DNA of 64,000 nt from an uncultured Pseudomonadota bacterium. GTDB taxonomy: Bacteria; Pseudomonadota; Alphaproteobacteria; Rs-D84. The notes beneath the pieces were generated by a model that saw nothing but the letters and a program-made list of their open reading frames with translations, was not told the DNA's origin and ran no database searches. Made by a program: the position numbers and the translations under genes. The stretch covers positions 64,793-128,792 of the forward strand of contig OOHL01000002.1 in the NCBI GenBank assembly GCA_900321105.1, given 5' to 3'. Shown here piece by piece: positions 1 through 23,324 of this stretch; the first letter of the stretch is position 1; every line of letters begins with the position of its first letter.

Positions 1-1156
1 TGATGTAAAATTAAATGAAGAATATAGAGATATTTATAAGGATATATTTAAAGACATCAAAAATTATATAGATGACGAAAACATTGCCCCCAGAGTCGTA
101 TCAGAATTGTCTGGTGACAAAATTATTGAAGATAACACCATTGTTAAATATAAAGATGATTTGCCAGAATATCATAATGGATTAGGTTACCAAAATTTGA
201 TCTCTATTTTATTTGATATCCATATATACATCAACCAAGCGACACCAACAAAAAATGTTATTTCTTTATTGTTAATAGAAGAACCAGAAGCTCACACTCA
301 CCCTCAGTTACAATACATTTTTATCAAAAATATAAAAAAATTGCTCGAGAATCATGGCTTACAGGGCTTTATTTCTTCACACTCAGCACATATAGTATCT
401 CAAGCCGATTTTTCAGACTTAAAATACTTCTACATTGATAACAATTCTGTCAAAACGAAAGATCTTAGTCAATTACAACAAGACTTCAAAGACGACATAC
501 AGTCTTTCTTGTTTTTAAAAAAATATTTAACCGTTGGTTATTCTGAACTATTTTTTGCCGATAAAGCTGTCTTCATTGAAGGTGACACTGAAAGGATTCT
601 ATTCCCTGCTTTTCTAAAAAAATTGAGTTTACTCCCTGAAACCAAAGACGCTTTACATACTAACATTAGCGTTATCCCAATAGGCGGAGCTTATGCACAT
701 AAGATGAAACCTTTTATTGATTTTTTTAATATAAAAACTTTGATTATTACTGACATTGATTATGATTCAAACGGAGATTTAGATAAGGAAATAACCAATG
801 AAACAATCAAAAAATTACTAAACAAAAAAATAGCAAAAGACATTATAAAAGACGGATCAGAAGAAATAGAAAAAAACAAACTATATCTTGCTTATCAAAA
901 AGATGAGACTAGATCATTTGAAGATTCTTTTTGGGAAACTAACAAAGATTTTATAAACACAAACAAAGATAATTTTGTTTCGCTCAAGAACACGGGGAAT
1001 TTAGCCGCATATAAAAACAAATATCAATTTTCAAACAATTTCGTAATCAAAAAGTCAAATTTTGCGGGAGATATTTTGTATTTCTCCGATGAAACTTTTT
1101 CAAACTGGGAAATACCAGAATATATACGTAAGGGGTTAACATGGTTGATACAATAG
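1..1156 (+). CDS. gajA: Gabija GajA-like OLD-family ATPase plus Toprim nuclease, 5'-truncated by the window edge. The reading frame is open from position 2.
   Basis: ABC/OLD-type Walker B and D-loop 'LLLIEEPEAHTHPQL'. H-loop-like 'SSHSAHI'. Toprim glutamate motif 'VFIEGDTERILF' followed by DxD 'IITDIDYD'. 16-nt overlap with a downstream UvrD-like helicase gene. Confidence 0.7.
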   Translation, partial: DVKLNEEYRDIYKDIFKDIKNYIDDENIAPRVVSELSGDKIIEDNTIVKYKDDLPEYHNGLGYQNLISILFDIHIYINQATPTKNVISLLLIEEPEAHTHPQLQYIFIKNIKKLLENHGLQGFISSHSAHIVSQADFSDLKYFYIDNNSVKTKDLSQLQQDFKDDIQSFLFLKKYLTVGYSELFFADKAVFIEGDTERILFPAFLKKLSLLPETKDALHTNISVIPIGGAYAHKMKPFIDFFNIKTLIITDIDYDSNGDLDKEITNETIKKLLNKKIAKDIIKDGSEEIEKNKLYLAYQKDETRSFEDSFWETNKDFINTNKDNFVSLKNTGNLAAYKNKYQFSNNFVIKKSNFAGDILYFSDETFSNWEIPEYIRKGLTWLIQ

Positions 1157-2730
1157 TTGATCAGTTATATAGGTGTCTGTCTGACAATAAAAATTTTGTC
1201 TTATCTGGTGGTGCAGGAAGCGGAAAAACTCATACTTTAAAGAATATTATAAATTTAATTTATGAACATAATCCAAATGCACATATTGCTTGTATTACCT
1301 ACACGGAAGTAGCAGCGAAGGAAATAACGGACCGCTGTTTTACTATAGACAGACAAAACAAACTGTGGGTTTCAACAATACATAGTTTTTTATGGGAAAA
1401 CATTAAAAACTATCAAAAACAGTTAAAAAAGGCCATCGCAACATTGATTCAAAATCACACAATATCTTGGACCCCAAAAACGGAAGAAAACAATATAAAC
1501 ATCATAATCGCCGATAAGCGAATAGATTATAAAAATTATAGAGATCTCGATAATGGAATCGTTTGGCATGACGATATATTAAAAATATCAAAGTATTTAT
1601 TTGAGAATTATCCGTTGTTAATAAAAATATTTTGTGATAGATATGATTATATTTTTATTGATGAATATCAAGATACTGCAGAAGATGTTATAAACATCTT
1701 TATGAAAATAATTAAAGCTAATTATCGTACAAAAATAGGTTTTTTTGGTGATTCAATGCAATCGATATATTCGAATGGTGTAGGAAATTTATCTGCGTAC
1801 GTAGATAATGCCAATTTAGTAGAAATACAAAAACCAGATAATTTTCGTTGTTCTAAATCTGTTATAGATCTTTGTAACAAGCTCAGAACAGACGGTTTAA
1901 AACAAGAACCTGCACACAGAGATTCAACAGGCAAAATCGACAATAAAGTCGGTAAAGTTGTGTTTGTATATAGTAACAATCCTATAGAATATTTTGAAAA
2001 TCATAGGTTATATTACGAATTGTTCCAACAATCTGGTCCTGATAAAAGCTTATATTTAACACACAGGCTTATCGCGACAAAAGCCAAATTTAAAGAATTA
2101 TTTGAAGCATATGAAAACTTTTATAACAAAAGAGGAAAAGATCGACTTATTGGTGACTCAAAAGATCGTATGGCTTTACATTTAGAAGAAATATCAAATC
2201 TAATATATTTATATACATATAACAAATATAATGAATTTATACAAAAAACTGATTTTAAACTTCAAAATCACGGTTCCAAAATAACTTTGAAAAATAACAT
2301 AGAACAATTTCTTTCTCAAAATTTTTCTATTGAGGATGCCGTAATCAAAATGGATGAATTACAATTGTTAAAAACGGGTGACATTATCCAGTCTGAAAAA
2401 GAGTTATTCGATTGCATTAAGAATATACCTTTTGAACAAGTCCAAAATTTATACAATGTAGAACATAATTTGACTTCTTATTCAACCCAACATGGTATAA
2501 AAGGTGCAGAATTTAACGATGTTCTAGTTATCTTAGATAACGGTAAATGGAATCAATATAATTTCACTAAATTATTTTCAGACACCCCAGACCAGAAAAC
2601 CTTGAAATTGTTTTATGTATGTGTATCTAGAGCAATGAACAATTTGGTGGTATACATGCAATCACCTTCAGCAGACACATTGACAAAAGCTGCTGAATGG
2701 TTTGGTTCAGACAATGTTATTTCTATATAA
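1141..2730 (+). CDS. gajB: Gabija GajB-like UvrD/PcrA-family helicase
   Basis: Walker A 'SGGAGSGKTHT' and helicase motif II 'FIDEYQDT'. About 529 aa. Translationally coupled to the OLD-family ATPase gene. Confidence 0.7.
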   Translation: MVDTIVDQLYRCLSDNKNFVLSGGAGSGKTHTLKNIINLIYEHNPNAHIACITYTEVAAKEITDRCFTIDRQNKLWVSTIHSFLWENIKNYQKQLKKAIATLIQNHTISWTPKTEENNINIIIADKRIDYKNYRDLDNGIVWHDDILKISKYLFENYPLLIKIFCDRYDYIFIDEYQDTAEDVINIFMKIIKANYRTKIGFFGDSMQSIYSNGVGNLSAYVDNANLVEIQKPDNFRCSKSVIDLCNKLRTDGLKQEPAHRDSTGKIDNKVGKVVFVYSNNPIEYFENHRLYYELFQQSGPDKSLYLTHRLIATKAKFKELFEAYENFYNKRGKDRLIGDSKDRMALHLEEISNLIYLYTYNKYNEFIQKTDFKLQNHGSKITLKNNIEQFLSQNFSIEDAVIKMDELQLLKTGDIIQSEKELFDCIKNIPFEQVQNLYNVEHNLTSYSTQHGIKGAEFNDVLVILDNGKWNQYNFTKLFSDTPDQKTLKLFYVCVSRAMNNLVVYMQSPSADTLTKAAEWFGSDNVISI

Positions 2731-6977: not shown

Positions 6978-7053
6978 TCGGGCATAGTTCAGTCGGTAGA
7001 ACAACGGACTGTTAATCCGTATGTCACTGGTTCGAGTCCAGTTGCCCGAGCCA
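6978..7053 (+). tRNA. tRNA-Asn (anticodon GUU)
   Basis: The sequence folds as a cloverleaf. Acceptor TCGGGCA/TGCCCGA, D-arm GTTC..GAAC, anticodon stem ACGGA/TCCGT with loop CTGTTAA, T-loop TTCGAGT, discriminator G, and an encoded CCA. Confidence 0.9.
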
Positions 7054-7340: not shown

Positions 7341-7850
7341 ATGAAATACAAACATTTTGATGATATTGCGCCTAACCATCGCACAGATTTTGTGATGCTG
7401 TATTTTGCCGCATGTCGTTCTTTGCGCGAATTGGAATCGGCCGTACGCCGCACGCAAGATGGTGCATTAACCAATCGCCAGGCGTGGTTACTCCGCCGGT
7501 TGATGTACAAATGTGTCCAAATGGCCGCCCGGCATAAATCCGACCAGCGCAAATTCGAAATTGCAACAATATCTGGTAACAGATCCGGTGCCAAGGCTCT
7601 TTTGGTCACGTTACCCAGCGCAATAACCGATGCGGATATCGGTCAAATGTTGGCCACGGCCATCCAAAATGATGCTAAGCATATCTTCTTCATAACCCCT
7701 ATTCGGCCTAGTATAGCCCAACAACGATCGATACAATGGATGAATGATCATTACAGACATCAAAGTCATTGTCCTGATCCCATCGCAAAAAATAGCCAAT
7801 TAAACCGATTATTCGCTTTCGCCCAGCATGCGGTTTTTGCGTTCGGTTAA
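7341..7850 (+). CDS. Hypothetical protein that is visibly GC-rich relative to its surroundings. It sits at the attL edge of the island.
   Basis: 169-aa ORF. Its codons are rich in G/C (e.g. 'gccgtacgccgcacgcaagatggtgc', 'ggccgcccggcataaatccgaccagcgc'), unlike the flanking AT-rich DNA. It converges on the GIY-YIG gene with a 42-nt 3' overlap. Confidence 0.35.
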   Translation: MKYKHFDDIAPNHRTDFVMLYFAACRSLRELESAVRRTQDGALTNRQAWLLRRLMYKCVQMAARHKSDQRKFEIATISGNRSGAKALLVTLPSAITDADIGQMLATAIQNDAKHIFFITPIRPSIAQQRSIQWMNDHYRHQSHCPDPIAKNSQLNRLFAFAQHAVFAFG

Positions 7851-8474
7851 AATTTCGCCTTTGTATTTAAAGAAATCCGGTCCACGGTATTGTTTCCAAT
7901 TGGTGGCAAAATGTTCTTTCATGATCTTTCTGGCCAATTCAGATAATGAATAATCCGTACCGTTGAATGATACTTTCTTTTTATGCGTGGAATCGTTCAC
8001 TGTGCATTTCAAAACCGTGCCATTTTTTAATGTACGCGCAAATTCTAATGTCGCCCCCGGCTTGATACCAACCGCAGCAAAATCGTATTGTTTTTTGCCT
8101 TTTTTATCTGATGCTATTTGGATATCTTCATCTTTCACCACACCATCTTCACCAAACATGGTATTGTCTGTTTTTATCTCTTCGCCTTTGAATCCCTTGG
8201 CCAGTACTTCCAATAAAGCCACCGCATCTTCCGGGGCAACTCTGAAAAATTCTCTGTTTGATCTTACGCGGCTACCAGCAAAGATTCTGTGTGCATAAGC
8301 TTCATTTTCTTCATAATTATCAACCCTGACGGCGAAATGGCATCTGAACGGCAAAGGAACACCTGTTTTATCAAGTTGCTTCATGCGTTGTTCAACCGTC
8401 TTATCTGTGCGTCCGATTTTGATGTAACCAGGCATCGCATCATTGGTTAAAATATATATAATCCCACGCGCCAT
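7809..8474 (-). CDS. GIY-YIG (T5orf172-like) nuclease-domain protein with a DUF4357-like C-terminal region
   Basis: N-terminal 'GIIYILTN...GYIKIGRT' matches the GIY-YIG/T5orf172 pattern. RBS 'aggag' upstream. 221 aa. Confidence 0.5.
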   Translation of the reverse strand: MARGIIYILTNDAMPGYIKIGRTDKTVEQRMKQLDKTGVPLPFRCHFAVRVDNYEENEAYAHRIFAGSRVRSNREFFRVAPEDAVALLEVLAKGFKGEEIKTDNTMFGEDGVVKDEDIQIASDKKGKKQYDFAAVGIKPGATLEFARTLKNGTVLKCTVNDSTHKKKVSFNGTDYSLSELARKIMKEHFATNWKQYRGPDFFKYKGEILTERKNRMLGESE

Positions 8475-8576: not shown

Positions 8577-9317
8577 CTATTCATTTCTTGTGATCAGATC
8601 ATAAGCCAAACTGGCTAAGGCCAAATAATGAATAGCAATATTTCTATCCAAAGATTTTGCCAAATCATGAGCTTTTTCGTTTCTAAATTTTTGAATCGCC
8701 ATGTTCAGAAATTTTATTCCCTCAAAAAAATCTTTCTCTACCTCATTAACCGGTTCATGCCCAAATATGCGCATATAGTTTTCTTCGCTAAAGGCCCTAT
8801 GTGCCTGCTCTTCATTTGTTAAATCTTTTAATTTTCGCCTAACTATTTTATAAGCCTCTTCAACAGCATGGAAATAATCTTCTGTCACCAAATATCTTTC
8901 AACATGTTCAAATATAGCAGGATGCAATACAAAATCTATATTTGACGTAATATTTGGTTTTACTATCTCCACTGCTGTTCTTCCAACATCGGGCATATTC
9001 AATAATTTGTTACCTATTTTCTCAATTTGCTCACTAAATTTGATTGTTAACGATTGTCTTAATTCCGCATTTCTAAAAAATGCGGCAAGCTCCAAAATAA
9101 CACGCCCAACGGTTTTGTTATTATCTATATCCCAAAATGCACGCATCCGTTTGGCTTTTGACTCACCGTATTTTTTATATTTTTCATCGTTAATATCTAT
9201 TCCGAAAGCAGCGAATAATTCGCTAAATGTCTTATCTGTAAAATGTAAGACCCACCCTGTATCCATTCTAAGGGCATTTTCTAGATATTCTCTATCCGCT
9301 GGTGACAAATTACTCAT
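8577..9317 (-). CDS. Predicted HEPN-motif protein (Rx4H 'RNEKAH'). Candidate RNase effector, Abi-like.
   Basis: 246 aa. C-terminal 'KFRNEKAHDLAK' fits the HEPN Rx4-6H motif. Its start overlaps the stop of the upstream coiled-coil/2-TM gene (ATGA coupling). Confidence 0.4.
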   Translation of the reverse strand: MSNLSPADREYLENALRMDTGWVLHFTDKTFSELFAAFGIDINDEKYKKYGESKAKRMRAFWDIDNNKTVGRVILELAAFFRNAELRQSLTIKFSEQIEKIGNKLLNMPDVGRTAVEIVKPNITSNIDFVLHPAIFEHVERYLVTEDYFHAVEEAYKIVRRKLKDLTNEEQAHRAFSEENYMRIFGHEPVNEVEKDFFEGIKFLNMAIQKFRNEKAHDLAKSLDRNIAIHYLALASLAYDLITRNE

Positions 9318-10558
9318 TTTTTACTACACACTATCTTGACTATATTTTCTATTAAATTGGAAATCTCATGTGGAATAATAACATTTTTGTCTGGTGCATT
9401 CCCACCAGGTGAAAGCAATGCCTTTGCTAATTCCAATTTCACAACATCTTTTTCTGGGATTTGTGTTTGTTCATCTTTTGTAGATTCACTAATATTATTG
9501 AAATATGGTTCTACAGCCGCCATTTTGATTTCAAGTTCGCGATATTTGTTTTCCTTATCTCTCTGTTTTTTGGATTCATTAGCCATATATACAGCAGGCA
9601 ATAACAACAATGCCGCTATCGGTAATCTACACAATAAAATATTCCAATTTAGATTAGCAAAAGTCTTCGTTTGATCAAAAACAAATATACTATTACACAA
9701 AGCCTCTAGTACGGGCCACACAACCACTAGTGCAAATACCAACATTAAACCGATTGAGCTCCAAAACAATATATTGGCAAAATCTCTCGCATTATCTGCG
9801 TACTTTTTTTGAGAACCAACCACTGCCTCTTTGCCGACAATACCATATATTTTCTCTATTTTATGTTGGATCTGTTCCATATCACTAAGGCGTTTTTCTG
9901 CTCCGTCTTTTAACAACTGGAAATTTGTATTATATAACTTATCTTGTTCAGCTTTTTGCGCCTCAAACTGACTTGAAAAGTCGTCCAATTTATTAGAAAA
10001 ATCATTTAATCTTTTTTCTTGAGCCGCAGAAAATTGTTGCTGTTGCGTAGTTGTTATACCATCCAATTGATTAGACTTGTCTTCTATCTTTCTTTCAAGT
10101 TTTGCGATATTCTGGGTCAAAACTAAAATCTGTTGATTTAATTCAGAATTTTCTTTGCGCAATTTATTCGTTATATTTGAATTACTGTCCTCAAAATCCT
10201 TTACAATTTTATCTAATGCCGCTGAAGTATCACCTTTTTGAACTACCGGTATTTTAGATATAAAATCCAGTAGTTCATTAAGTGTATTATTTATGTGAGT
10301 TATATAAGATGAATTTTTACTTTGATGGAACGAGTTCATATATGACGATAAATTATTCAGATTATTTACAATGCTATTTGAAAAAGATGTACCATATAAC
10401 ACATTTTTTTGAGATTTTACTCTCTGCTCTAAAATTTTTAATATGGCCACCTGCTTGTTATAATATTCAATATAATCATTTTCAGAATAATCCTCTGGAG
10501 ATAAAATAGATTCTATCTCTTTAATTTTATTTGATATCACTTCAATATTATCTGACAT
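9314..10558 (-). CDS. Coiled-coil protein with two C-proximal transmembrane helices. Candidate membrane effector or sensor partner of the HEPN protein.
   Basis: 414 aa. The first ~270 aa are heptad-rich and charged, i.e. coiled coil. Two hydrophobic helices follow ('ILFWSSIGLMLVFALVVVW' and 'ILLCRLPIAALLLLPAVYMA'), then a ~100-aa tail. Confidence 0.4.
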   Translation of the reverse strand: MSDNIEVISNKIKEIESILSPEDYSENDYIEYYNKQVAILKILEQRVKSQKNVLYGTSFSNSIVNNLNNLSSYMNSFHQSKNSSYITHINNTLNELLDFISKIPVVQKGDTSAALDKIVKDFEDSNSNITNKLRKENSELNQQILVLTQNIAKLERKIEDKSNQLDGITTTQQQQFSAAQEKRLNDFSNKLDDFSSQFEAQKAEQDKLYNTNFQLLKDGAEKRLSDMEQIQHKIEKIYGIVGKEAVVGSQKKYADNARDFANILFWSSIGLMLVFALVVVWPVLEALCNSIFVFDQTKTFANLNWNILLCRLPIAALLLLPAVYMANESKKQRDKENKYRELEIKMAAVEPYFNNISESTKDEQTQIPEKDVVKLELAKALLSPGGNAPDKNVIIPHEISNLIENIVKIVCSKK

Positions 10559-10605: not shown

Positions 10606-13602
10606 TCATACTTTTTTATCTTTATTCTTTTTGTCTTTTAACTCATTGTAAATGCTTTTCATAAATATGCCCAAGACCTCTTTCTTGATATCAGTATTGT
10701 CTAAAAGCATTGTGAAAAAGTCCTGATTTTGTGTAAATCCTTTCACCAGCGCATCATCAATATGATCATAAAATGGCATACTGAAATTATCTATTGTGTT
10801 AGTTTGGGCACTGGCCACCAAATCTGAATCTTTTTTCAGGATATCACGCACCTGTAATGCAGCATTAAATGCCATATCTTTATCAAAATGCTTACCTGTT
10901 CTGGCATTGACTTCATCAATAATTTCTGACAACCGGCGTTCTTCATCTTCTGTTAAATTGAATGTTTCGGCGGTTGGTAAGACAACCTTTGGATCAGCAG
11001 CAATGTTAACCTTTACCTCTTGCCCCTTTCGTTGTTCAAAATTACTGGCTTGAATCATGCTTTTTAAATCAAAACCATCCCCAGACTTACCTGTTTTAAG
11101 GTATGGCAGTAACCACGTAATAAAGTTGTATTTCTTGTACAAATCTATATCCGACACATCTGTAGACACCTGCAATAAAAATTCATAGAACCGGACAAAT
11201 CTACGCAAACTTACATATAGTTCTCGTTTATCTTTGTCTTGTTTTGCATCAAATGCTCTTTTTGACTTGGATAACAAATTTATGATTTTAATTTCTTTTT
11301 GTTTATCCTTAACTTCCGAAGAATAGAATATGTCGTTAGCCTCTATAGCATCATCTAATGTAAATATGTTATAACTATCGATCTTTTCATCCAATTCGTA
11401 CACAGATTCTGGCGTTACCGTATTACACAGAATTGTTGATGTAAAATATGGTTTAAACGATTTTTCAATATCCTCTATTTTATTAGCAAAATCTAATATA
11501 AACACTTTTTTGTTATATGGCGGACAAATTCTGTTCAATCTGGACAATGTCTGTACAGCCGCAATGTCTCTCAGCTTTTTCAAGACATACATTGCACACA
11601 ATTTATTTTGATCAAATCCGGTCTGATACTTATTTGCGACCAAAAGAACCTGATAGTCACCTTCATCAAACCTTTTTGCTGTTGCTTCTTCACTAAAGCC
11701 ATTTATAGATGATTCTGTAACGAATTTATCTGTATCATTAGAGATACCCAACTGTTTCTCGGTTACCTTTCCAGAAAAAGCGATTAAAGGATGAACATCT
11801 GTATATCCCTTATCTTTCACATAGTCTTGGAAAGCATTATAATATTGCACCGCTTCAACACGAGAACTGGTCACAACCATCGCTTTTGCCCATGGTTGTT
11901 CAGATAACACGATATTTTTAAAGTGCTCTACGATTATTTCAATTCTTTGTGCAATATTTGTCGGATGCAACATAGCAAAACGGGCAATTTTCTTTTTTGC
12001 TTTTGCTGTTTTGAATTTTGGGTCTTCTGCTATCTTTTTGTTTATTTTAAATAATGTCTCATACGGCGTGAAACTTTGCAAAACATCAATAATAAAACCT
12101 TCTTCTATGGCTTGTTTCATAGAATAAAGGTGAAACGCCTCATATCCATTGCCGCTTTGTCTGCCAAACAACGCCAAAGTCGTTGGTTTTGGTGTTGCAG
12201 TAAATGCGAACATAGATACATTCTTTTGTTTGCCTTGTTTTTTTATGGTATTAGCTATCATTGTTTCTGCATCATCACCGTCATCATCATCCGATGCCAA
12301 AGTGGTGGTAACAGCAGCCATATCTTTACCGGACGTTGAAGAGTGCGCTTCGTCAATAATTACTGCGAATGTTTTGTTTTTCAATCCTTTTACCAGATCT
12401 GCAATATACAAAAACTTTTGGATTGTCGTCACGATTATCTTGGTGTTACCTTCCAAAGCAGATTTTAAATCGCCAGAAGAACAATCTTTATCCATAACCT
12501 TGATCAAACCAGCCTTGTGTTCCAGCGCACGAACAGCATCTTGCAATTGTCTATCCACAACCACACGATCTGTAACAATCACAACAGTATCATAGATTTG
12601 TTTGTTTTCAGTGTCGTGTAATGAAGCCAATCTGTGAGCCAACCAAGCAATTGTATATGTTTTTCCCGATCCGGCACTGTGTTGAATCAAGTAATTTTGC
12701 GACGTTTTATTATTAGTCACATCGTCCAAAATCTTTCTGATACAGTCCAGTTGATGATATCTTGGGAATATAATATTTTCTTTTAATTTTTTTGTTTTAT
12801 CATCTACCTTGCGTTCAACGAATGTGAACTTGGTCAGTATTTCTATCAAATGGTCTTTCTGCAACATATCTTCCCATACATAGGATACCGCAGCAATGTC
12901 ATTCGGATTTATTGGGTTACCTTTACCGGCATCTATACCTGTGCCGTTACCCTTGTTAAATGGCAAAAAGAAAGTTGAAGCACCATTCAATTTGGTGGTC
13001 ATATAACATTCTTCCAAATCCATGGCAAAATTTACAACACATCCAGCCTTGAACAAGAATAATCTAGCCTTGGAATCTCTTTCTAATCTGTATTGAGTGA
13101 TTGCGTTCTCATAGTTTTGACCGGCAGTATTACATTTCAGTTCAAAAGATATTATCGCAAAACCATTCAAAAATAATACCAGATCAATACGTTCGCTGTC
13201 TGTTGCCCATACTTCTTCTGCCACAGAGAAAATGTTTTTTGCATACTTTTCATTTAATTCTTTATTATATTCCGTTGCCGGTTTCGTATACATTAACGAC
13301 AAATGAATATTTGATAAATCGATACCCCGTTTCAAAGTTTCTAACAAAGAGCTTTTCTTGGCCGTTATTTGACCATTTATTACACCGATCAGGGTTTCTT
13401 CAAGTTTATTTTTATAAATCTTTTTTAATTGTGCCATTTCATCTGGCTGACTATCATTCAAAAATTTGAACAACAATTCACGATCCATAGCATGCGCACG
13501 ATCAAAGTTTTCATCTGTGCGTTCAATATAACCGTTATGCTTTTTCAGGTAGTCAATAATGTGTCTTTGATACTGTTTTTCTGTTAGAATTTTATTCATC
13601 AC
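10606..13602 (-). CDS. hsdR: Type I restriction enzyme R subunit (HsdR)
   Basis: 998 aa. Walker A 'QHSAGSGKTYT', DEAH box 'IIDEAHSS', and a helicase superfamily 2 layout. Overlaps hsdS by 11 nt. Confidence 0.9.
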   Translation of the reverse strand: MMNKILTEKQYQRHIIDYLKKHNGYIERTDENFDRAHAMDRELLFKFLNDSQPDEMAQLKKIYKNKLEETLIGVINGQITAKKSSLLETLKRGIDLSNIHLSLMYTKPATEYNKELNEKYAKNIFSVAEEVWATDSERIDLVLFLNGFAIISFELKCNTAGQNYENAITQYRLERDSKARLFLFKAGCVVNFAMDLEECYMTTKLNGASTFFLPFNKGNGTGIDAGKGNPINPNDIAAVSYVWEDMLQKDHLIEILTKFTFVERKVDDKTKKLKENIIFPRYHQLDCIRKILDDVTNNKTSQNYLIQHSAGSGKTYTIAWLAHRLASLHDTENKQIYDTVVIVTDRVVVDRQLQDAVRALEHKAGLIKVMDKDCSSGDLKSALEGNTKIIVTTIQKFLYIADLVKGLKNKTFAVIIDEAHSSTSGKDMAAVTTTLASDDDDGDDAETMIANTIKKQGKQKNVSMFAFTATPKPTTLALFGRQSGNGYEAFHLYSMKQAIEEGFIIDVLQSFTPYETLFKINKKIAEDPKFKTAKAKKKIARFAMLHPTNIAQRIEIIVEHFKNIVLSEQPWAKAMVVTSSRVEAVQYYNAFQDYVKDKGYTDVHPLIAFSGKVTEKQLGISNDTDKFVTESSINGFSEEATAKRFDEGDYQVLLVANKYQTGFDQNKLCAMYVLKKLRDIAAVQTLSRLNRICPPYNKKVFILDFANKIEDIEKSFKPYFTSTILCNTVTPESVYELDEKIDSYNIFTLDDAIEANDIFYSSEVKDKQKEIKIINLLSKSKRAFDAKQDKDKRELYVSLRRFVRFYEFLLQVSTDVSDIDLYKKYNFITWLLPYLKTGKSGDGFDLKSMIQASNFEQRKGQEVKVNIAADPKVVLPTAETFNLTEDEERRLSEIIDEVNARTGKHFDKDMAFNAALQVRDILKKDSDLVASAQTNTIDNFSMPFYDHIDDALVKGFTQNQDFFTMLLDNTDIKKEVLGIFMKSIYNELKDKKNKDKKV

Positions 13603-14851
13603 TGACCTCCTTTTTGCCAGTTACATATTCATAAATTAGTGATTTTTTATAATTTTCAACGACTTCTAATTGATGTTTCTTGTCTACTATGATTGATTCT
13701 ATTCCTGCACATTTTTTATCTAGATGTTCAACAATACGGCATTGCTCCTCTAATAACGGTACAATATAGAATAGGTTTTTTATCTTTCCCCAATTGGTAT
13801 CGCACGTTCTTACCCTTATACCGGTGGATAACGCCTCAAAAACACCCTCGTTTGCCATAGTGCGCAGCAAATACATAAAATACCGTTTAGATTGATCTGT
13901 TTCCAGCACATTCAAGACAGGAGATGCTTTGCCCCTAGAATCTGAAATCCCTATAGCTCCCGCAAAACCGTCCATACCATGAATAATTAAATCACCAACG
14001 TCAATACCTTGATAGCCAATCTCTTTCTCTGACATGGTAAAACCGTCTTCTCGTCTATTGGATCGCAATGTTACTTCTCCATCCCTAAAACAAGTAATAA
14101 CCCCGTCATCCTCACGAGTTGGCTTTTGCACATAGGTAAATATATATTTACCTCGTTTTGTTTCCCAATTTGCAGGTATTTTACCAATATATGCAATACC
14201 ACTATCCTTCATTGGCACTTTAGAATTCAAGCCTTTGGTGACCGCTTCGGAAATAACGGATCGTTTGTATTGTTCTAGTTTATCTATTTGTTCTTGAAGA
14301 TCAGCCATCACAGAATCAATCTCACCACACTTACGGTCCAAATAATCAGCAATTTTTTGTTGTTCTTGTAGTGATGGCACCAGCAAACAAATTTCTAACA
14401 ATTCTTTTGCGTTAAGACTACTTCTAACACCGGCATCCCCTAAAGCATTAAATACCTCGTTCATCCACATCATAAGATAATATTTTTCCGCAAATCTTGG
14501 ATTCATATTTTCATTTGCTTTCAATACTATGTATGCAGGCGATACGATCCCTGTATATTTAGAATATCCTACTCGACTTGTAGAAACATTTTGCAAATCT
14601 ATCAATTTGAATACCAACTCATCCTTTTTCAGTATCTGATATGTATCGAATTTGTCTGGTTGTAAACCTTCGTTGTCTTCCTTGGATCTTTTGATCACCC
14701 CTCCAAGAGTCAAGGCCAATCTATCATATTGTTCTACCTTTGCTCCCACAACTTGCTTGTTGTTGGAAAATACGTATTTACCACGTATAACACTCCATGT
14801 ACTTGGAATTTGTCCCACCCAGCCTATACCACTATCTTTCATTTCACGCAT
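13592..14851 (-). CDS. hsdS: Type I restriction-modification specificity subunit (HsdS), two target-recognition domains
   Basis: 419 aa with duplicated conserved coiled regions ('LQEQQKIADYLDRKCGEID' and 'LEEQCRIVEHLDKKCAGIE'). It lies between hsdM and hsdR. Confidence 0.85.
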   Translation of the reverse strand: MREMKDSGIGWVGQIPSTWSVIRGKYVFSNNKQVVGAKVEQYDRLALTLGGVIKRSKEDNEGLQPDKFDTYQILKKDELVFKLIDLQNVSTSRVGYSKYTGIVSPAYIVLKANENMNPRFAEKYYLMMWMNEVFNALGDAGVRSSLNAKELLEICLLVPSLQEQQKIADYLDRKCGEIDSVMADLQEQIDKLEQYKRSVISEAVTKGLNSKVPMKDSGIAYIGKIPANWETKRGKYIFTYVQKPTREDDGVITCFRDGEVTLRSNRREDGFTMSEKEIGYQGIDVGDLIIHGMDGFAGAIGISDSRGKASPVLNVLETDQSKRYFMYLLRTMANEGVFEALSTGIRVRTCDTNWGKIKNLFYIVPLLEEQCRIVEHLDKKCAGIESIIVDKKHQLEVVENYKKSLIYEYVTGKKEVSDE

Positions 14852-14863
14852 ACCAGCCCCCCT

Positions 14864-17017
14864 TTAGAACAACTTATTGATTTTGTTTCGAACTTGGTTT
14901 TCCAAATCTTGAAATTCTTTGGCTAGCTGTTCGCTTGGTTCTGGTTCTTGATATTTATAGAAATATCTGGTGAACGGAATTTCGGCACCAATTTTGATAG
15001 TCTTTTCGCCACGATCATCAGCAAATGTTGCGTTTTCATCACGACCCTCAAAGAATGCTTTGGCATCTGGGATATGTGGTAAAACTTCACGTTCCATATA
15101 GTCATCTATATCTTCATCGTATTTGACAATTTCCGTATCTTTGGTTTCTTTATCATATATGATGTTATCTTTTTTATCCCGTTGAATTTCTGCATTCTTG
15201 TCCATAATTGATAATCCATCGGTCACTTTGGTAATGATTTTTTTATCAAAACCCTGCATTACACCCGTAATATATGGTTCGAATTCTTTTGGTGATAGAA
15301 AAAGCTTATCTGAACAATTATCATTCAGCACCTTCAGAATAGAATCATACAAAGGTTTATTAGCTATAAACTCTCTTTGTTTCTTCTTTTGTTTTTCATC
15401 CAATGGTTCCAAAGAATTTTCATACTCATACATCTTGCCTTCGTCATAAATGGACGACAAACAACCGTTTTGCACCATGTTTTCAATGCGTTCTGGTGTA
15501 ATCGCATAGCTGCGTTGTAATGGTTGCATGATGGTATATTCACGATACATAAATTCTGTATTCTTGTATATTTTCACCAGTTCGTTTTCTTTAAAGTTCG
15601 TGTATAATTCTGTGATGTTCTTTCTGTCTTCTGGTGATAACTCGTTTCTTTTATTACCCAACGCTTTGCGTAGCTTATGATAGATACCGGAAGCATCGAT
15701 CAGTTGAATTTTACCCTTACGTTCTGGTCTTTTATTTTTGGATAATATCCACACATACGTTTGAATTCCGGTATTGTAGAATAAATCTGTTGGCAACGCG
15801 ATAATCGCCTCTATCAGATCTTGTTCCAGTAACCAGCGGCGAATTTGACTTTCACCAGATGCTGTACTACCAGTAAACAAAGGCGACCCATTTTCAATGA
15901 TAGCAGCGCGGCCAATTTTGTCTTGCATCTTGGCAACCGCAGATTGTAAGAATATCATTTGTGAATCACCACCAGATGGCAACCCGGCCCCCCAACGACC
16001 ATAATCTCCTTTGGCATGCTCTTTTCTTACTGCATCTTCCTGACCATCTTTGGCATCTTTACCGGACCAAGGCGTTCCAAAGGGTGGATTTTCAATCAAG
16101 AAACGCATCTGTGTGTTTTCAAAACAATCTTCCTTGAATGTGTCTGCGTGACGAAAATTACGTGCATCTTGCCCCTTGATTAACATTTCTGCCAAACCAA
16201 TAGCATAAGATGGTCCCATAAATTCTTGACCAAACAAACGAACATCCGCAGATGGGTTCAAGTATTTCAAATAAGAAAATGCTGTAGATAACATACCGCC
16301 AGTTCCCGCAGCCTGATCACACACAGTTATAACTTTATGGTCTTCAAAAACATCATCACAACCTTCTGCTGTCAAAATAGAAACCAAACACTTGATGATA
16401 TCACGCCCCGTGTAATATTGCCCTGCATCCACATTTTGGAAGAATCTGCCTATCAGATTTTCAAAGATGTACCCCATTTTGATAGAATCATAAGTAGCAG
16501 GGTTCAAATCCAATTCAGAAAAAGCCTTCATGACCGTAAACAAACAACCACCCTTGTCCATGGTTTGAATATGATTAAACAATTCCAATTGAGACATAAT
16601 ATCTCTTACGTTTGCAGAAAAACCATTGATATAACTTTTGAAATTTTCAGCCAAATTGTCGGTATCATTCAACAATTCTGCAAGATCGTAATGACTTGTA
16701 TTATAAAATTGAAAACCAGCGACATTTTCTAACATTTGGGCTGGTAAATCTGGATTGGATTCGTATGCTTTAATAACCGCTTCTTTGGTTGGAACCAGTG
16801 CACACTCCAATCTGCGTAAGATGGTCATTGGAATAATCACATCACCATATTTATCTGGCATGTATGTTCCACGCAATTTATTAGCAATCGACCAAATAAA
16901 ATTCGCCTCTGCTGTCACATCAACCGGATTATCATCCCACAACAAATCAAGTTTATTATTCAAAACCATCTTTTTTCTCCATTCGGCATAGTTTTTTTGC
17001 TTCTTGGTAGGGATCAT
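14864..17017 (-). CDS. hsdM: Type I restriction-modification N6-adenine DNA methyltransferase subunit (HsdM), long form
   Basis: Catalytic 'IENPPFGTPW' (NPPF) and AdoMet motif 'VCDQAAGTGGML'. 717 aa. Confidence 0.9.
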   Translation of the reverse strand: MIPTKKQKNYAEWRKKMVLNNKLDLLWDDNPVDVTAEANFIWSIANKLRGTYMPDKYGDVIIPMTILRRLECALVPTKEAVIKAYESNPDLPAQMLENVAGFQFYNTSHYDLAELLNDTDNLAENFKSYINGFSANVRDIMSQLELFNHIQTMDKGGCLFTVMKAFSELDLNPATYDSIKMGYIFENLIGRFFQNVDAGQYYTGRDIIKCLVSILTAEGCDDVFEDHKVITVCDQAAGTGGMLSTAFSYLKYLNPSADVRLFGQEFMGPSYAIGLAEMLIKGQDARNFRHADTFKEDCFENTQMRFLIENPPFGTPWSGKDAKDGQEDAVRKEHAKGDYGRWGAGLPSGGDSQMIFLQSAVAKMQDKIGRAAIIENGSPLFTGSTASGESQIRRWLLEQDLIEAIIALPTDLFYNTGIQTYVWILSKNKRPERKGKIQLIDASGIYHKLRKALGNKRNELSPEDRKNITELYTNFKENELVKIYKNTEFMYREYTIMQPLQRSYAITPERIENMVQNGCLSSIYDEGKMYEYENSLEPLDEKQKKKQREFIANKPLYDSILKVLNDNCSDKLFLSPKEFEPYITGVMQGFDKKIITKVTDGLSIMDKNAEIQRDKKDNIIYDKETKDTEIVKYDEDIDDYMEREVLPHIPDAKAFFEGRDENATFADDRGEKTIKIGAEIPFTRYFYKYQEPEPSEQLAKEFQDLENQVRNKINKLF

Positions 17018-17071: not shown

Positions 17072-17965
17072 TTATTTGTCGTTTCCGTATATAAAACGTT
17101 CTGCATTGTGTCTTTGACTTTCGTTAAATACCTTTACCAGCGCATCTGGACAACTGCCAGCTTCACCTGTTACAGAACACCTGAAAGCATCACTTATAAC
17201 AACCGGTAATCCTGCCATCATCATTTTTATCAATCTTATTTTAGCTTCTTCTGCCATTACTTTTGCCGTTAAAACAAGTATAAGTTTCGATGATATTGGT
17301 AAAAATATTTGGGAATGCGGCAAATCAAAACCGCTAGTTTTTCCATTGTCTTCCATAAAAGCCAAATGATTATTTAGCACAGTTGGATTATCCGAAGTAA
17401 TGAATATTTGTTTGCCAGTAGCTTTGAACAATACCCATTCCATTGATGCTATGGCATCACGAATAACATTATCATGCTCTATATCGTACAAAGAATTGTA
17501 ACTCATAACCCGCGCAAAATTATCGTCGATGTTAACATCATCACAATAAAAGCTTTTCTTTATATTCCCATCTGGTCCATGCAAATCAAACAAATGCAGA
17601 TTGTTAGTTTGCAAAATGTTTTTTACATGATTTACGTATTTTCTGGTTCTATAAAATTGGCACAAAATAAAATCTTCAACAACTCGTTTATCGTTGTCTT
17701 GCAACCAACCAATAGATTCTGTTTTAACAATAGTATCAATTATCGGGGCTGTTTTGTCTTCTAAACCTGCAAATTGCTTTTCTAGTGAAATATCACCATT
17801 CATGGTCTTCAAATCATAAAAACGGTTTTCTTGAGCAACATTGATTATGTTGGTTTTATATTTATTTTTGGTTTTCAAATCGGTTACCGCAATAGTTTTG
17901 CCATCGGCACAAAAGTGTTTTAACAAAAATCTCGGCACATAATGCTGGCTTTTTGTTTCTGGCAT
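17072..17965 (-). CDS. DUF4238-family protein
   Basis: N-terminal 'QHYVPRFLLKHF' matches the characteristic DUF4238 start motif. 297 aa. Co-directional with and immediately upstream of hsdM. Confidence 0.55.
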   Translation of the reverse strand: MPETKSQHYVPRFLLKHFCADGKTIAVTDLKTKNKYKTNIINVAQENRFYDLKTMNGDISLEKQFAGLEDKTAPIIDTIVKTESIGWLQDNDKRVVEDFILCQFYRTRKYVNHVKNILQTNNLHLFDLHGPDGNIKKSFYCDDVNIDDNFARVMSYNSLYDIEHDNVIRDAIASMEWVLFKATGKQIFITSDNPTVLNNHLAFMEDNGKTSGFDLPHSQIFLPISSKLILVLTAKVMAEEAKIRLIKMMMAGLPVVISDAFRCSVTGEAGSCPDALVKVFNESQRHNAERFIYGNDK

Positions 17966-18340: not shown

Positions 18341-18991
18341 TCATCCTTTTATGCTTTCGGTCAATTTGTAGATGCCAGCAAATACCGTCGCCGTATATTC
18401 AGGCTCCTCACAAAACGAAATAGCCCATTGTTTAGCCTGCTTCATGGCATTATTATAGCCGTTTTCCATTGTGGCAAAATCAAAATATGGGCCTTCATGT
18501 GGTGTTTTTTCATGGCTATAACCAGGCATCGTTGGGGCCCGTAATTTGCTTTGATTTGTTTTTGCGCTTGTTGATATCTTTGTTATACCACAACAAAGTA
18601 AGCCGAATGTTTCTATACTTGGTGCATTAAATGCGATATTAACAGGCATATATTTTTTCTTTAACCCCTGAACAGAATGATTAAACGCTTGAACTTTTGT
18701 GTATGCTTGATGAACCTTTGCTGGTTTATCATTATCAAAAACAATCCATAGTTCGCTTTTCCCATAGGTCTCTTGTTTTTTAGAAAACTCTATTGCATAT
18801 TGTGCTAAACTTAAAGGGTCAGTATCAGATTTCTTATAAAACCAAACAATTGTGCAATTATATTTTTTACACAATTGTTTGATATAAGTCGCTTCTGTAC
18901 CGCAGTCACCACCCTCGCAGGCAAGATATATTGTCTTTTTTGGTACTACTCGTGATCTAGAACAACAAATTATTTTATTATTTCTTGCCAT
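18341..18991 (-). CDS. RloB-like Toprim-domain protein (AbiLii-like)
   Basis: Toprim-like 'IYLACEGGDCGTE' glutamate and 'IVFDNDKP' DxD motifs. 216 aa. It overlaps the upstream AAA ATPase gene by 22 nt. Confidence 0.55.
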   Translation of the reverse strand: MARNNKIICCSRSRVVPKKTIYLACEGGDCGTEATYIKQLCKKYNCTIVWFYKKSDTDPLSLAQYAIEFSKKQETYGKSELWIVFDNDKPAKVHQAYTKVQAFNHSVQGLKKKYMPVNIAFNAPSIETFGLLCCGITKISTSAKTNQSKLRAPTMPGYSHEKTPHEGPYFDFATMENGYNNAMKQAKQWAISFCEEPEYTATVFAGIYKLTESIKG

Positions 18992-20241
18992 ACTTGTTCG
19001 CCTCCTAAGAAAGGAACTGCACCATACCTACCATTGATGTAATCCTTCTCCAGATCTTTATCGAAACGTGGATTTATATCCGTCAACGGATACAATCTGC
19101 TGGAACCATCGCTGTCTTTTTCTGTAAACCAAATTTCATCAACTCTCCAAATATCATGAGACAATAACAGCGTGTTATGCAGCACCGCTATGATTTGCCC
19201 CCCCATAGGATTATTTAATAAACTTTTCAACAGAACCTTTGATAAAAACGGATGGAATAAATTATCAAACTCGTCTAACAACAACAATTTGCTGCCTTCT
19301 GTTTTCTTGAATGAATACAACATGAATCCCAGTTTAAATAACTTTATCGTCCCAGCAGATTCTCTGTTTGTTGGGAATTGTGCGTCACCATGGAACATCA
19401 CCAATTGCCGGCATACCACGCGACCGTTTTCTAACGAAAAGAAATAATAATCTTCGTCTTCTTGGCGACACAACACTTCACCACGAGTCAATGCTGCTAA
19501 GTCCAGTCTCATAAGTGTTGTTTGTGGCACATCCAATTTCTTGAAATCCACATCGGTTATTCCGAAATCCGCTTGAACAAGTAAATCAAGCAAAAACTTT
19601 TTAAATTCTGGGAACTTAAAATTGTGGTACACATATAACGGATTTATTTGTGTTTTTGGATCAAAATAACCTATGCTGCGCAAAAAGTGAATTGCGTTCA
19701 ATATGTGTTGTTTATTTTTAACATCATTATCAAAAATACCATCCATTATCATTTTGGATAACAATGTTCTATTTTTGGAAAAACTGCAGTTTTTATAAAA
19801 ATTATCTGTAAATAACTTTCCAAACTCTTTTTCAACCCCCGTTCTTTTAAAGATCAAATTTTTCTTGTTTTTTTCCGCAAAATACAATTCCTCATTGGAT
19901 ATCTCATCCTTTGAAATTGAAATTTTATAATTATACTTGAACCCGTTTGATATAAAATTTACCTCAAACTCAACAGGCGCATCATTGTTCAACATAAAAC
20001 GATTGGAATTGATAAATGCAACAATGTCCCTGTCGCCAATAGCAGTAAACTCAGACAACATGGTAATTGTGTGTAACAAATTGGTTTTACCGCTAGCATT
20101 GGCACCATAAATCCCTACGCCAGAAAGTAAATTGCCCCCGATTATGTGTTCCTTGTGCTTCTGGATAGATGTTTTTTCCATAGACAATGTGATTTTATCT
20201 TTGAACGAAGAAAAATTAGAAACAGAAAAATCTATAAGCAT
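18970..20241 (-). CDS. AAA_21/ABC-type ATPase (AbiLi / PARIS AriA-like)
   Basis: Walker A 'GANASGKTNLLH' and Walker B/D-loop 'LLLLDEFDNLFHP'. 423 aa. Strong RBS 'aaggag' upstream. Confidence 0.6.
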   Translation of the reverse strand: MLIDFSVSNFSSFKDKITLSMEKTSIQKHKEHIIGGNLLSGVGIYGANASGKTNLLHTITMLSEFTAIGDRDIVAFINSNRFMLNNDAPVEFEVNFISNGFKYNYKISISKDEISNEELYFAEKNKKNLIFKRTGVEKEFGKLFTDNFYKNCSFSKNRTLLSKMIMDGIFDNDVKNKQHILNAIHFLRSIGYFDPKTQINPLYVYHNFKFPEFKKFLLDLLVQADFGITDVDFKKLDVPQTTLMRLDLAALTRGEVLCRQEDEDYYFFSLENGRVVCRQLVMFHGDAQFPTNRESAGTIKLFKLGFMLYSFKKTEGSKLLLLDEFDNLFHPFLSKVLLKSLLNNPMGGQIIAVLHNTLLLSHDIWRVDEIWFTEKDSDGSSRLYPLTDINPRFDKDLEKDYINGRYGAVPFLGGEQVWQEIIK

Positions 20242-20669
20242 ATTTTACTCCTTGTTTGGCACAAAAATATCATTTTTTGACCAAAAAGTCAAGATAAATG
20301 TGAAAAAATCACATTTATTTGTAAAAAACGATGGTTTTTGATCATTCTTCATAATTTTTCACCATTTTGTTGTTCGCCGATCTGTGTCCCAATCGGCATT
20401 GTTTGGCAGTGTGCTTTTACTCCTTTACATGACCACCATGCATGAAAAATTTTCATTTGTAAAGTCTTTATTTTCTGCGGATTTTAGCGTTGATACATGA
20501 TGATACACTATGATACATTTAACCCAAAAAATGAGAAATTTTTGTATTTAAACATCTATTGAAACATTTAAATGCGCTTTGATACAAATTGATATAAATT
20601 GGCACATACGACCACTTTTCAAAGAAATTACTTTTGAAATTCCTCCAAAAATGAAAAAATGCCAAAATG

Positions 20670-21246: not shown

Positions 21247-22443
21247 CTATCCGCATATTGCGTTCGCAACGTTATTGATTGCGCGATAAGTGCTACTATC
21301 CATGATGTGCGTGTACCCTTCGGTGGTGGTTATACGACTGTGGCCTGCCGCTTCCTTCATGGCGGCCATATTTTCGCCTATATTCGCCCCCATACTGATG
21401 AAAGAATGCCGCAGATCGTGTATTCGCATGTGCGGAAGTTTTGCGTATTCAAGCGCCCATTCAAATGGTTTACGTATGTTGTTTATTGGTCTTGTGATAT
21501 TACCCACACCAGGAAATACGTATCTACTACCCAGCGCAAGAGCTTCATCCAGCGCAGTTTGTAAATATGGTATCACTGCATCGGATAATTTTACATCTCT
21601 GGCACCAGTCTTACTGTCTTTCAAATGTATAACTTTATGCATAAGGACAAGCTCGTCTACTTCCAGGCCTGTTATTTCAGATGCACGACACCCGGTTAAC
21701 ATTAAAACGCGTAGTGCATTAAACAAACGAGGATGCATTTTGGATACTTCTGGTCCAACGTCCAGCGCATGAGACAATGCCCTGTATCCTTCTTGATCCA
21801 GAATTTGTGGTTTATAAACTTGATTTGAACCCTTACGGACGTATTTACATGGGTTTGTATTGCGATTTACATATTTATACATTTCGCACCAGTCCCAGAA
21901 ATTTGAAAATAACGACAATGCTTTATTTGCGGTTGAAAACGATATCTTTTTCACCCATTTAGCATAGGCGTCCATTACATGCTTTTCTTCTATCTGGCGC
22001 ATGTATAATTTATCAAACATGGGCCCCAGGTATAATCGATATTCGCCCCAATTGGAATCTTGCGTTCTTGGTTTCTTGTAAACCTTGGCATATTTTTCCA
22101 TGTATTGGGGAAATAGATCTTCGAATTTTTCACCAAGATCTTCCTGTTGTTCTGTTTTTTCACGACGCGGGTCTTGCCCATTGGCAATTTGACGCCGCAA
22201 ATTCCATGCCATTTCACGAATGTCTTTAATTGAATAATCGTTATATCGCCCGATATAAAGATTGCATTTCTTGTTATCGATTTTACATCCCAAGAAAAAT
22301 CTGATTGCGCGCGTTGATGCGGAATACCGCAGAAACAATCCGGGGATTGTTCCATCGCTTACCTGTAAATTTACATCAGAACGCAACAAATGTATCCAAG
22401 TATCGCGAAACGGCTTCGTATAGCATTTCCATTGCTTTTCCAT
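21247..22443 (-). CDS. int: P4-type tyrosine integrase (DUF4102 arm-binding N-terminus plus catalytic domain)
   Basis: Catalytic 'LMLTGCRASE' (Arg), 'HDLRHSF' (HxxR) and 'TTTEGYTHI' (Tyr). The likely start is the ATG at 22443, preceded by RBS 'aaaggag'. The ORF is open to 22542. Confidence 0.9.
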   Translation of the reverse strand: MEKQWKCYTKPFRDTWIHLLRSDVNLQVSDGTIPGLFLRYSASTRAIRFFLGCKIDNKKCNLYIGRYNDYSIKDIREMAWNLRRQIANGQDPRREKTEQQEDLGEKFEDLFPQYMEKYAKVYKKPRTQDSNWGEYRLYLGPMFDKLYMRQIEEKHVMDAYAKWVKKISFSTANKALSLFSNFWDWCEMYKYVNRNTNPCKYVRKGSNQVYKPQILDQEGYRALSHALDVGPEVSKMHPRLFNALRVLMLTGCRASEITGLEVDELVLMHKVIHLKDSKTGARDVKLSDAVIPYLQTALDEALALGSRYVFPGVGNITRPINNIRKPFEWALEYAKLPHMRIHDLRHSFISMGANIGENMAAMKEAAGHSRITTTEGYTHIMDSSTYRAINNVANAICG

Positions 22444-22508
22444 ATGTGTAACTCCTTTGGTTGCGACTACACAGTGCAACACACAAATAAAATAGCAAGT
22501 AAAAACAA

Positions 22509-22763
22509 CTATTTTTTGCCGATTCTTTGTTGTTCCAACCATTGATTCACATCGGATTTGCGATATCGCACCATTTTGCCGATTTTAAAGTATTCCGGTC
22601 CAGTACCCAGCGCACGATATTGACTTAATGCCGAAATGGATGATTCAAGATATTGAGCCAACTGTCTTGGCGTCATAAGTTTATCTTTTTCTCCGTTTTC
22701 GTTTATAAAATAACAACTTGTATCTCTCTCCATCCCCCAATTTTTTTTGAACTCTTGTTCCAT
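22509..22763 (-). CDS. alpA: AlpA-family helix-turn-helix regulator or excisionase-like protein
   Basis: 'MTPRQLAQYLESSISALSQYRALGTGPEYFKIGKMVRYRKSDVNQWLEQQ' fits the AlpA/MerR-like HTH pattern. It lies immediately upstream of int. Confidence 0.65.
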   Translation of the reverse strand: MEQEFKKNWGMERDTSCYFINENGEKDKLMTPRQLAQYLESSISALSQYRALGTGPEYFKIGKMVRYRKSDVNQWLEQQRIGKK

Positions 22764-23307: not shown

Positions 23308-23324
23308 CTGTTAATCCGTGTGTC
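23308..23324 (+). repeat. attR-type core. A 17-nt copy of the tRNA-Asn anticodon stem-loop, CTGTTAATCCGTgTGTC.
   Basis: 16 of 17 nt match tRNA-Asn positions 7009-7025. The flanking sequence then diverges. Confidence 0.6.

Follow-up and report, generated by a model that had tools for sequence, protein, structure and literature searches.

The 64,000-nt window of contig OOHL01000002.1 that we analysed, derived from an uncultured Pseudomonadota bacterium, contains at the end of a type I restriction-modification (R-M) operon two genes, to which we refer as A (an open reading frame, ORF, of 414 aa) and B (an ORF of 246 aa); all coordinates given without a locus name are those of this window. The operon, hsdM-hsdS-hsdR (10606-17017, minus strand), comprises hsdM (14864-17017), hsdS (13592-14851) and hsdR (10606-13602; 998 aa), each assigned by Pfam, PADLOC and NCBIfam matches. 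It is directly followed on the same strand by gene A (9314-10558), encoding a membrane coiled-coil protein of a family without annotation, and by gene B (8577-9317), encoding a protein with an N-terminal helical domain and a HEPN domain of the Ymh family. The start codon of A, with GGAG 7 nt 5' of its ATG, lies 47 nt from the stop codon of hsdR, and the gap between the two genes has no terminator-like site, the counts in a scan for promoters and terminators being no higher than those of shuffled sequence. The TGA of A and the ATG of B share the tetranucleotide ATGA (9314-9317, minus strand), as read directly from the sequence, and no obvious Shine-Dalgarno sequence was found upstream of the B start, which makes translational coupling of B to A plausible. 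The exact reading of both ORFs and of their overlap agrees with the initial annotation of this DNA, which had placed two coupled minus-strand genes just past hsdR.

The product of gene B is, by sequence, motif and fold, a HEPN protein of the Ymh family. Its residues 131-244 (8586-8927, minus strand) match the PF09509 Hypoth_Ymh profile with 56.4 bits (cut-off 25) and the TIGR02391 profile of NCBIfam with 91.3 bits (cut-off 39.45), the protein has the all-alpha, up-and-down helical bundle of the HEPN fold, and the RNEKAH sequence at residues 212-217 (8667-8684, minus strand) represents the Rx4H catalytic motif of HEPN proteins. The search for homologs of B yielded 667 proteins, with conservation spanning the full length. 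Of 120 homologs, 118 carry the RNExxH motif, and N213, E214 and H217 are invariant in our alignment A3. Only one of the 120 homologs, P0067, has the catalytic arginine replaced (LNEKAH instead of RNEKAH); it is encoded on a contig of 149,907 nt that also carries a homolog of A, P0014. Both the Rx4H motif near the C-terminus and the HEPN-like nature of the 246-aa protein had been proposed initially, and both are corroborated by the profile comparison; the gene cannot, however, be called unannotated, as it had been, since its product belongs to a described family. The N-terminal domain of B (residues 1-110; 8988-9317, minus strand) is conserved in all 34 aligned homologs as strongly as the remainder of the protein and is modelled by AlphaFold2 (AF2) with a predicted local distance difference test score (pLDDT) of ~80-90. 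It matched no family in Pfam, PADLOC or NCBIfam, and is a candidate regulatory or sensor domain. The survey by Anantharaman et al. 2013 (PMC3710099) classifies the Ymh family as HEPN, lists it as occurring "in operon with R-M", and proposes that fusions of Ymh to paraMORC ATPases, encoded in R-M neighbourhoods, are functional analogues of PrrC and RloC. A literature search did not find experimental work on this family.

The AF2 model of A (pLDDT 71) comprises a four-helix bundle, a helix of ~130 residues, a helical hairpin and C-terminal helices. The bundle (residues 1-100; 10259-10558, this and the following parts of A being on the minus strand) varies most within the family. The segment 110-240 (9839-10231), modelled with pLDDT of ~85-93, is a single long helix that contains no proline and forms a putative coiled-coil stalk. 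The coiled coil of 270 aa described in the initial annotation is thus replaced in the model by a bundle of ~100 residues and one helix of ~130 residues, while the two transmembrane (TM) helices described there were recovered. The first hydrophobic segment, TM1 (residues 263-281; 9716-9772), has a Kyte-Doolittle value of 2.45 in a 19-residue window, and its position is kept in all homologs tested. The second, TM2 (residues 307-325; 9584-9640), has a value of 2.14 and is followed by a K/R-rich stretch. The presence of two TM segments and of this stretch indicates that both termini of A should be cytoplasmic, and the remaining part of the protein (residues 326-414; 9317-9583) is accordingly assigned as a cytoplasmic juxtamembrane helix and a C-terminal tail helix.

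The conservation of A is highest in residues 326-356 (93% identity among close homologs and 40% family-wide), within the juxtamembrane helix that holds the family signature ESKKQRDKENKYRELEIKMAA.EPYFNNI, and is also high in TM2 (80% and 37%, respectively), whereas the N-terminal bundle is much more variable (51% and 17%). R310, P320 and Y323 show no or almost no variation, the arginine and the proline lying within TM2. This peak of conservation in TM2 and the juxtamembrane helix, combined with the variable N-terminus, is what would be expected of a core active at the membrane and coupled to a variable sensor, rather than of a passive anchor.

Judging by the sequences retrieved, A represents a real and widespread family of fixed architecture. 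In addition to 32 close homologs, a profile built from the C-terminal 183 residues and compared with 1.84 billion proteins matched 571 cluster representatives (50% identity) at E <= 1e-3, including 77 at E <= 1e-10; their length is almost always 400-450 aa, and the conserved domain is at the C-terminus. While the family of B has already been described in silico, that of A is without annotation in every domain and defence library searched. For A of the window, Pfam, NCBIfam and PHROGs gave nothing past one weak coiled-coil match, and in PADLOC it matched nothing but ZorA models, in their coiled-coil tail. None of 49 diverse members compared with Pfam, PADLOC and NCBIfam reached a curated family, their noise matches being of coiled-coil type (ZorA tails, JetC, LmuB, SMC, apolipoprotein), and the stalk matched models of the ZorA tail, JetC and SMC by composition only. 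A sequence-profile search of the PDB with the C-terminal domain gave nothing below E 1.7. The two family members that carry a name given by their source, a Hyphobacterium sp. protein and WP_319408817.1 of an uncultured Desulfosarcina, are both named "hypothetical protein". Among species-representative genomes, one close relative was found, in a metagenome-assembled genome of a gut "uncultured proteobacterium" (locus L015). A metagenome scan yielded five loci, and P0201 was the sole addition from a word-indexed protein search that used the 49-member profile. Five profile scans of the viral contigs of IMG/VR (three with the A family, one with close A homologs and one with B) detected only two loci, L025 and L033, and tblastn searches of PLSDB plasmids with A gave no matches. 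In view of this near-absence from IMG/VR, and of the absence of A from PLSDB, neither gene is typical cargo of phages or plasmids.

The genomic contexts of both genes indicate that what is conserved is the tie of each gene with R-M operons, above all that of B with type I, and not the tie of A with B. The absence of a partner was established by hidden Markov model (HMM) searches in six reading frames, extending as far as 7-8 kb to either side of the gene where the contig is long enough. The order hsdM-hsdS-hsdR-A-B of the window is replaced in gut metagenomes (L001-L015, L027/28), where A is 59% identical to that of the window, by hsdR-hsdM-B-A-hsdS. B is present without A in four architectures: hsdR-hsdM-B-hsdS (L017-20), B-hsdR-hsdM-RhuM/Fic-hsdS (L021-23), B divergent from hsdR-hsdS-AAA_13-hsdM (L024), and B-hsdM-hsdS (L033). 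Close homologs of A occur without B in three lineages, namely as hsdR-hsdM-A-hsdS (L034/35 and L037/38) and as hsdR-hsdM-A-147aa-hsdS (L036). Type I R-M genes thus adjoin B in six of six architectures, across unrelated Hsd families. The pair itself has been placed in unrelated type I families, as indicated by the identity of the window and L001 proteins, which is 24% for HsdM and 22% for HsdR but 59% for A and 59% for B.

Comparison of closely related loci indicates that the gap between hsdM and hsdS, as well as the ends of the operons, act as a slot for cargo, with cassettes being exchanged there. For instance, L015, with B and A, and L034, with A only, encode HsdR proteins that are 99% identical and HsdM proteins that are 98% identical, and differ by a clean B cassette of ~725 nt, bordered by the 3' end of hsdM on one side and by the A start on the other. 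L001 (B and A) and L017 (B only) are located at one and the same chromosomal site, with flanks that are 94-98% identical and R-M cassettes that are different. Between a B-only locus and the loci with both genes, the identity of B is 83-86%, and no column of the B alignment separates the two groups. In view of such similarities, gain or loss of A or B has been recent and clean. The same slot holds other cargo: a RhuM/Fic protein occupies it in L021 (12251-13234), an unassigned Cys-rich protein of 147 aa is encoded 3' of A in L036 (6267-6710), and in L024 an AAA_13 ATPase of PrrC/RloC type is encoded between hsdS and hsdM (1086-2420). The loci L001-L020 and L034 additionally contain inverted partial copies of hsdS and a gene of a Resolvase-family invertase, which indicates that the host type I systems there are shufflons of phase-variable specificity. 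An invertase-driven shufflon is likewise formed by the hsdS genes of the hsdR-hsdM-B-A-hsdS operons, those of L027/28 included.

More distant relatives of A were found in other surroundings. In L025 (1833-9200, IMG/VR), a 428-aa relative is encoded directly 3' of mod in a type III R-M operon (res-248aa-mod-A-281aa). A gene of an FRG-domain protein adjoins a distant relative in L016, three tyrosine recombinase genes precede one in L030, and in L031 of Hyphobacterium a distant relative is encoded solo, beside uvrB.

The explanation that we favour, and consider moderately probable, is that A and B each form an accessory defence module separable from the other, both being carried as cargo in or at the end of type I R-M operons and here stacked and translationally coupled. 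The RNExxH site of B, to judge by its conservation, most likely cleaves RNA, and the N-terminal domain most likely keeps this RNase activity off until infection, or the failure of restriction, is sensed. B would then be a second-line, abortive-type guardian of the R-M system, by analogy with PrrC, which guards EcoprrI. A is predicted to be inserted in the inner membrane by its helical hairpin and to have two cytoplasmic ends. The conservation pattern and genomic context of A point to TM2 and the juxtamembrane helix as the functional core, the variable N-terminal bundle and the stalk being probably the sensing or partner-binding part. Most likely A acts at the membrane, by permeabilisation or depolarisation or as a membrane-proximal switch, and would be a defence module in its own right.

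Several observations weigh against this explanation. The sample of contexts is small (12 look-ups and a few scans), and the membrane part of the A model is of low confidence (AF2 pLDDT 45-65). Among hosts whose Hsd proteins share only ~22-28% identity, B proteins retain 47-62%, and such conservation makes it less evident that the R-M complex would silence B by direct physical contact in the manner of PrrC. The solo relatives of A away from R-M, such as that of Hyphobacterium, indicate that the A family as a whole is not tied to R-M. Moreover, A and B are neighbours in both possible orders, L001 having the reverse of that in the window, the two R-M families concerned are unrelated, the divergence is equal (59% and 59%), and the type of the A tail covaries with the occurrence of B. 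A tail of the S-x-LIENI-[VL]-K-x-V-[CY] type terminates each of the nine A proteins whose B neighbour is confirmed or matched by contig, while the three confirmed A-only proteins have [FL][VI]K[DE][IL]. The last ~16 residues of A (window 9317-9370; P0001-P0032) track the presence of B perfectly in these 12 cases of known context, and P0025, which has the A-only tail, is otherwise 77-79% identical to proteins of the loci with both genes. The LIENI tail might serve as a helix on which B docks, or it may have arisen as a side effect of recombination where A meets hsdS. Together, adjacency in both orders, equal divergence and tail covariation hint at cooperation of A and B rather than their mere stacking.

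These last observations are also those that speak for an obligate two-component abortive-infection system, in which A would be a membrane sensor or pore and B an RNase effector, each needing the other. The ATGA overlap and the missing Shine-Dalgarno sequence of B in the window fit it as well, as does the RNVALH sequence, of the Rx4H type, at residues 191-196 of the 281-aa protein encoded next to the A relative in L025. The latter lead is weakened by profile comparison, as this protein matched Ymh only with a hhalign E-value of 0.15, matched nothing in Pfam at E <= 10 and had no homologs on plasmids; with no significant profile similarity to Ymh, it is a lead by its motif only. More decisive are the loci with B alone, in four architectures, and with A alone, in three lineages, the separation of near-identical operons (98-99%) by a single clean B cassette, and the lack of any signature in the B sequence of having or lacking A. 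On these grounds we regard an obligate pair as unlikely, although still arguable. The idea in the initial annotation of a membrane partner of a HEPN RNase acting by the logic of abortive infection retains its two components, the HEPN protein and the membrane protein, but not their obligate pairing, as the genes are separable.

A more far-reaching version of the explanation favoured here, which we consider unlikely as a whole, would make the A family an undescribed, widespread class of membrane-acting immune proteins, in which a variable bundle and stalk, of MLKL-like or CC-R-like shape, act as a sensor that drives a two-TM and juxtamembrane executioner. Such proteins would have been repeatedly recruited to type I and type III R-M systems as guardians, and in the lineages with both genes the LIENI helix would dock the Ymh HEPN RNase, giving a back-up composed of a membrane-tethered RNase and a pore.

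Alternatively, A might be not an effector but a structural membrane tether or scaffold that holds the type I R-M complex, and B if present, at the site of phage DNA entry. The position of A between hsdM and hsdS, with overlaps of 4 nt or very short gaps, as expected for a stoichiometric subunit, is consistent with this role, and so are the long stalk and membrane hairpin of the AF2 model and the A relative encoded directly after mod in the type III operon. Membrane association of EcoKI has been reported. However, the most conserved parts of A are TM2 with its buried arginine and the juxtamembrane helix, while the N-terminus, the presumed partner-binding part, is the most variable; near-identical or closely related R-M operons exist without A; and solo members of the family are encoded far from any R-M genes. 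A tether appears to us improbable.

The slots in R-M operons may also simply be permissive, with A and/or B being independent hitch-hikers that are either autonomous, as TgvAB is, or no defence genes at all. The unrelated cargo found in the same slot (RhuM/Fic, AAA_13 and the 147-aa protein) speaks for this possibility, as do the function of TgvAB independently of its host R-M system (PMC11411939) and the other single-gene defence candidates that flank the window operon on the same strand. Against it stands the presence of B beside type I genes in all six architectures and in unrelated Hsd families, which suggests repeated selection for the R-M neighbourhood. Distinctly improbable in our view, this alternative differs from the favoured explanation only with respect to the trigger. 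Finally, a toxin-antitoxin system that stabilises the island, with B as a HEPN toxin neutralised by A or the reverse, is highly improbable, as no MNT or other known antitoxin domain was found, each of the two genes is stably present in the absence of the other in backgrounds that are nearly identical, and a membrane protein of 414 aa would be atypical as an antitoxin.

The neighbourhood of the hsd operon in the window is a defence island with many genes matched by Pfam and PADLOC models, the operon being flanked on both sides by defence candidates on its own strand. The gene immediately downstream of B, on the same strand, encodes a T5orf172/MUG113 protein of 221 aa (7809-8474, minus strand; PADLOC PDC-S57, E 6e-62), another single-gene defence candidate. 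On the other side, 54 nt from hsdM, ends a gene of a DUF4238 protein (17072-17965, minus strand; PADLOC DUF4238-Pers, E 1e-8), upstream of which lies an overlapping pair encoding an AAA_21 ATPase and RloB (18341-20241, minus strand). A DUF3800 gene is also present in the island. A Gabija-like pair (107-2730, plus strand) consists of two ORFs overlapping by 16 nt, of which the GajA-like one encodes the C-terminal part of AAA_15 and an OLD-family TOPRIM domain, and the GajB-like one a UvrD helicase; the GajA-like ORF may be truncated or interrupted near the edge of the window, as only the end of the ATPase model was matched. The single tyrosine integrase gene of the island (21247-22542, minus strand) is 14 kb from a tRNA-Asn gene located inside the island (6978-7053, plus strand). 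In a search for island boundaries, no direct repeat of the 3' end of this tRNA gene that could serve as an attachment (att) repeat was found, the only repeats being a match of 17 nt to the anticodon loop (at 23308) and a repeat, 27 nt long, of the region upstream of the tRNA gene (at 20461). Thus, the initial description of an integrase-bounded defence island is supported as concerns its richness in defence genes and its one integrase; its bounding by the integrase is unproven, since att repeats were not found.

Operons of R-M systems carry many uncharacterised passengers, and the locus described here is a compact natural test bed: near-isogenic natural operons carry B, A, both or other cargo in one and the same slot, so that direct tests are possible. 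Back-up immunity that watches restriction enzymes is represented mainly by PrrC, with PARIS as the second named example. The contexts described above suggest that accessory modules, probably abortive ones, are embedded in R-M operons, and they open the questions of whether a Ymh HEPN RNase can be a guardian of type I systems, what the role of the A family is, and whether stacked passengers cooperate. As the A family is large and absent from all libraries searched, a function established for A would annotate many genes.

Among known proteins, B is closest to the Ymh family, with which it shares a C-terminal domain scoring above the curated cut-offs, the Rx4H motif, the HEPN fold and the occurrence in R-M operons. 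The forms described in the available portion of PMC3710099 are solo proteins and fusions to paraMORC, AbiJ-NTD1/2 or AbiTii, none of which was matched by the N-terminal domain of B, of ~110 residues, in the libraries searched, and a membrane coiled-coil neighbour of Ymh HEPN proteins is not mentioned in that portion. The statement in the initial annotation that the pairing is not a named system holds in so far as no PADLOC model was matched, but one of the two families had already been described in silico.

A resembles the two-TM effectors of SLATT, CBASS, Pycsar and retron systems in its membrane hairpin, conserved membrane-proximal region, variable cytoplasmic part and location in a defence island, but differs from them in carrying an N-terminal bundle and stalk of ~240 residues. 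Its assignment as SLATT was not supported, as A of the window gave no match and only weak matches were obtained for 1 of 49 family members in Pfam (4e-4) and 3 of 49 in NCBIfam (best 3.8e-5). No SMODS, SLOG, TIR or other nucleotide-signalling genes were found in the window or in loci L001-L038. Nor is A demonstrably a ZorA of Zorya, as it lacks a MotA/ExbB-type channel domain and its matches to ZorA models (PADLOC, NCBIfam; E 1e-6 to 1e-3), which cover residues ~60-230, are limited to the coiled-coil tail of the models. Matches to LeoBC of Eleos (PADLOC) were found for 16 of 49 family members, with the best E-value of 4.8e-9, and concern only the post-GTPase stalk and membrane region, no dynamin-type GTPase domain being present in A; they include P0157, P0201 and P0210, that of P0210 spanning the stalk, the TM hairpin and the C-terminus. 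Classification of the pair as HEPN-MNT was rejected, since neither A nor the products of the genes nearby contain an MNT domain. In Cas13b-Csx28, a HEPN RNase works with a membrane pore protein. Its logic, that of a HEPN RNase and a membrane protein jointly enforcing dormancy, is the one proposed in the initial annotation, but A and B have no CRISPR context and no detectable homology to that system, and each of them occurs singly.

Genes embedded in R-M operons have been described previously. TgvAB is nested in a type I R-M cluster of V. cholerae (VPI-2) and acts independently of the host R-M system (PMC11411939), and a guilt-by-embedding approach has yielded a catalogue of R-M-embedded genes with HEC and PDC candidates (Payne et al. 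2024, bioRxiv 10.1101/2024.01.29.577857). A and B are like the embedded systems of R-M, BREX and Hma operons in that they are accessory genes nested among hsd genes, are gained and lost as cassettes, and belong to a kind of gene enriched for defence functions. They have no match beyond noise to any HEC, PDC or other PADLOC-DB 2.0.0 model, although the neighbouring T5orf172 gene matches PDC-S57. The nearest parallel in concept is that of the anticodon nucleases PrrC, which in EcoprrI is an R-M guardian activated when Stp of phage T4 inhibits restriction (PMC12707154), and RloC. In contrast to both, B has no N-terminal ABC-type ATPase, with no P-loop or AAA_13 match in Pfam or NCBIfam, and accompanies several unrelated type I families; lacking the ABC ATPase domain, it is not a member of the PrrC/RloC group and is like it in concept only. 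As in EcoprrI and RloC, however, the gene of a HEPN-class RNase is embedded in or abuts a type I R-M locus, in six of six architectures, and by this analogy B may share the logic proposed for PrrC and RloC, that of a latent RNase released once restriction has been subverted.

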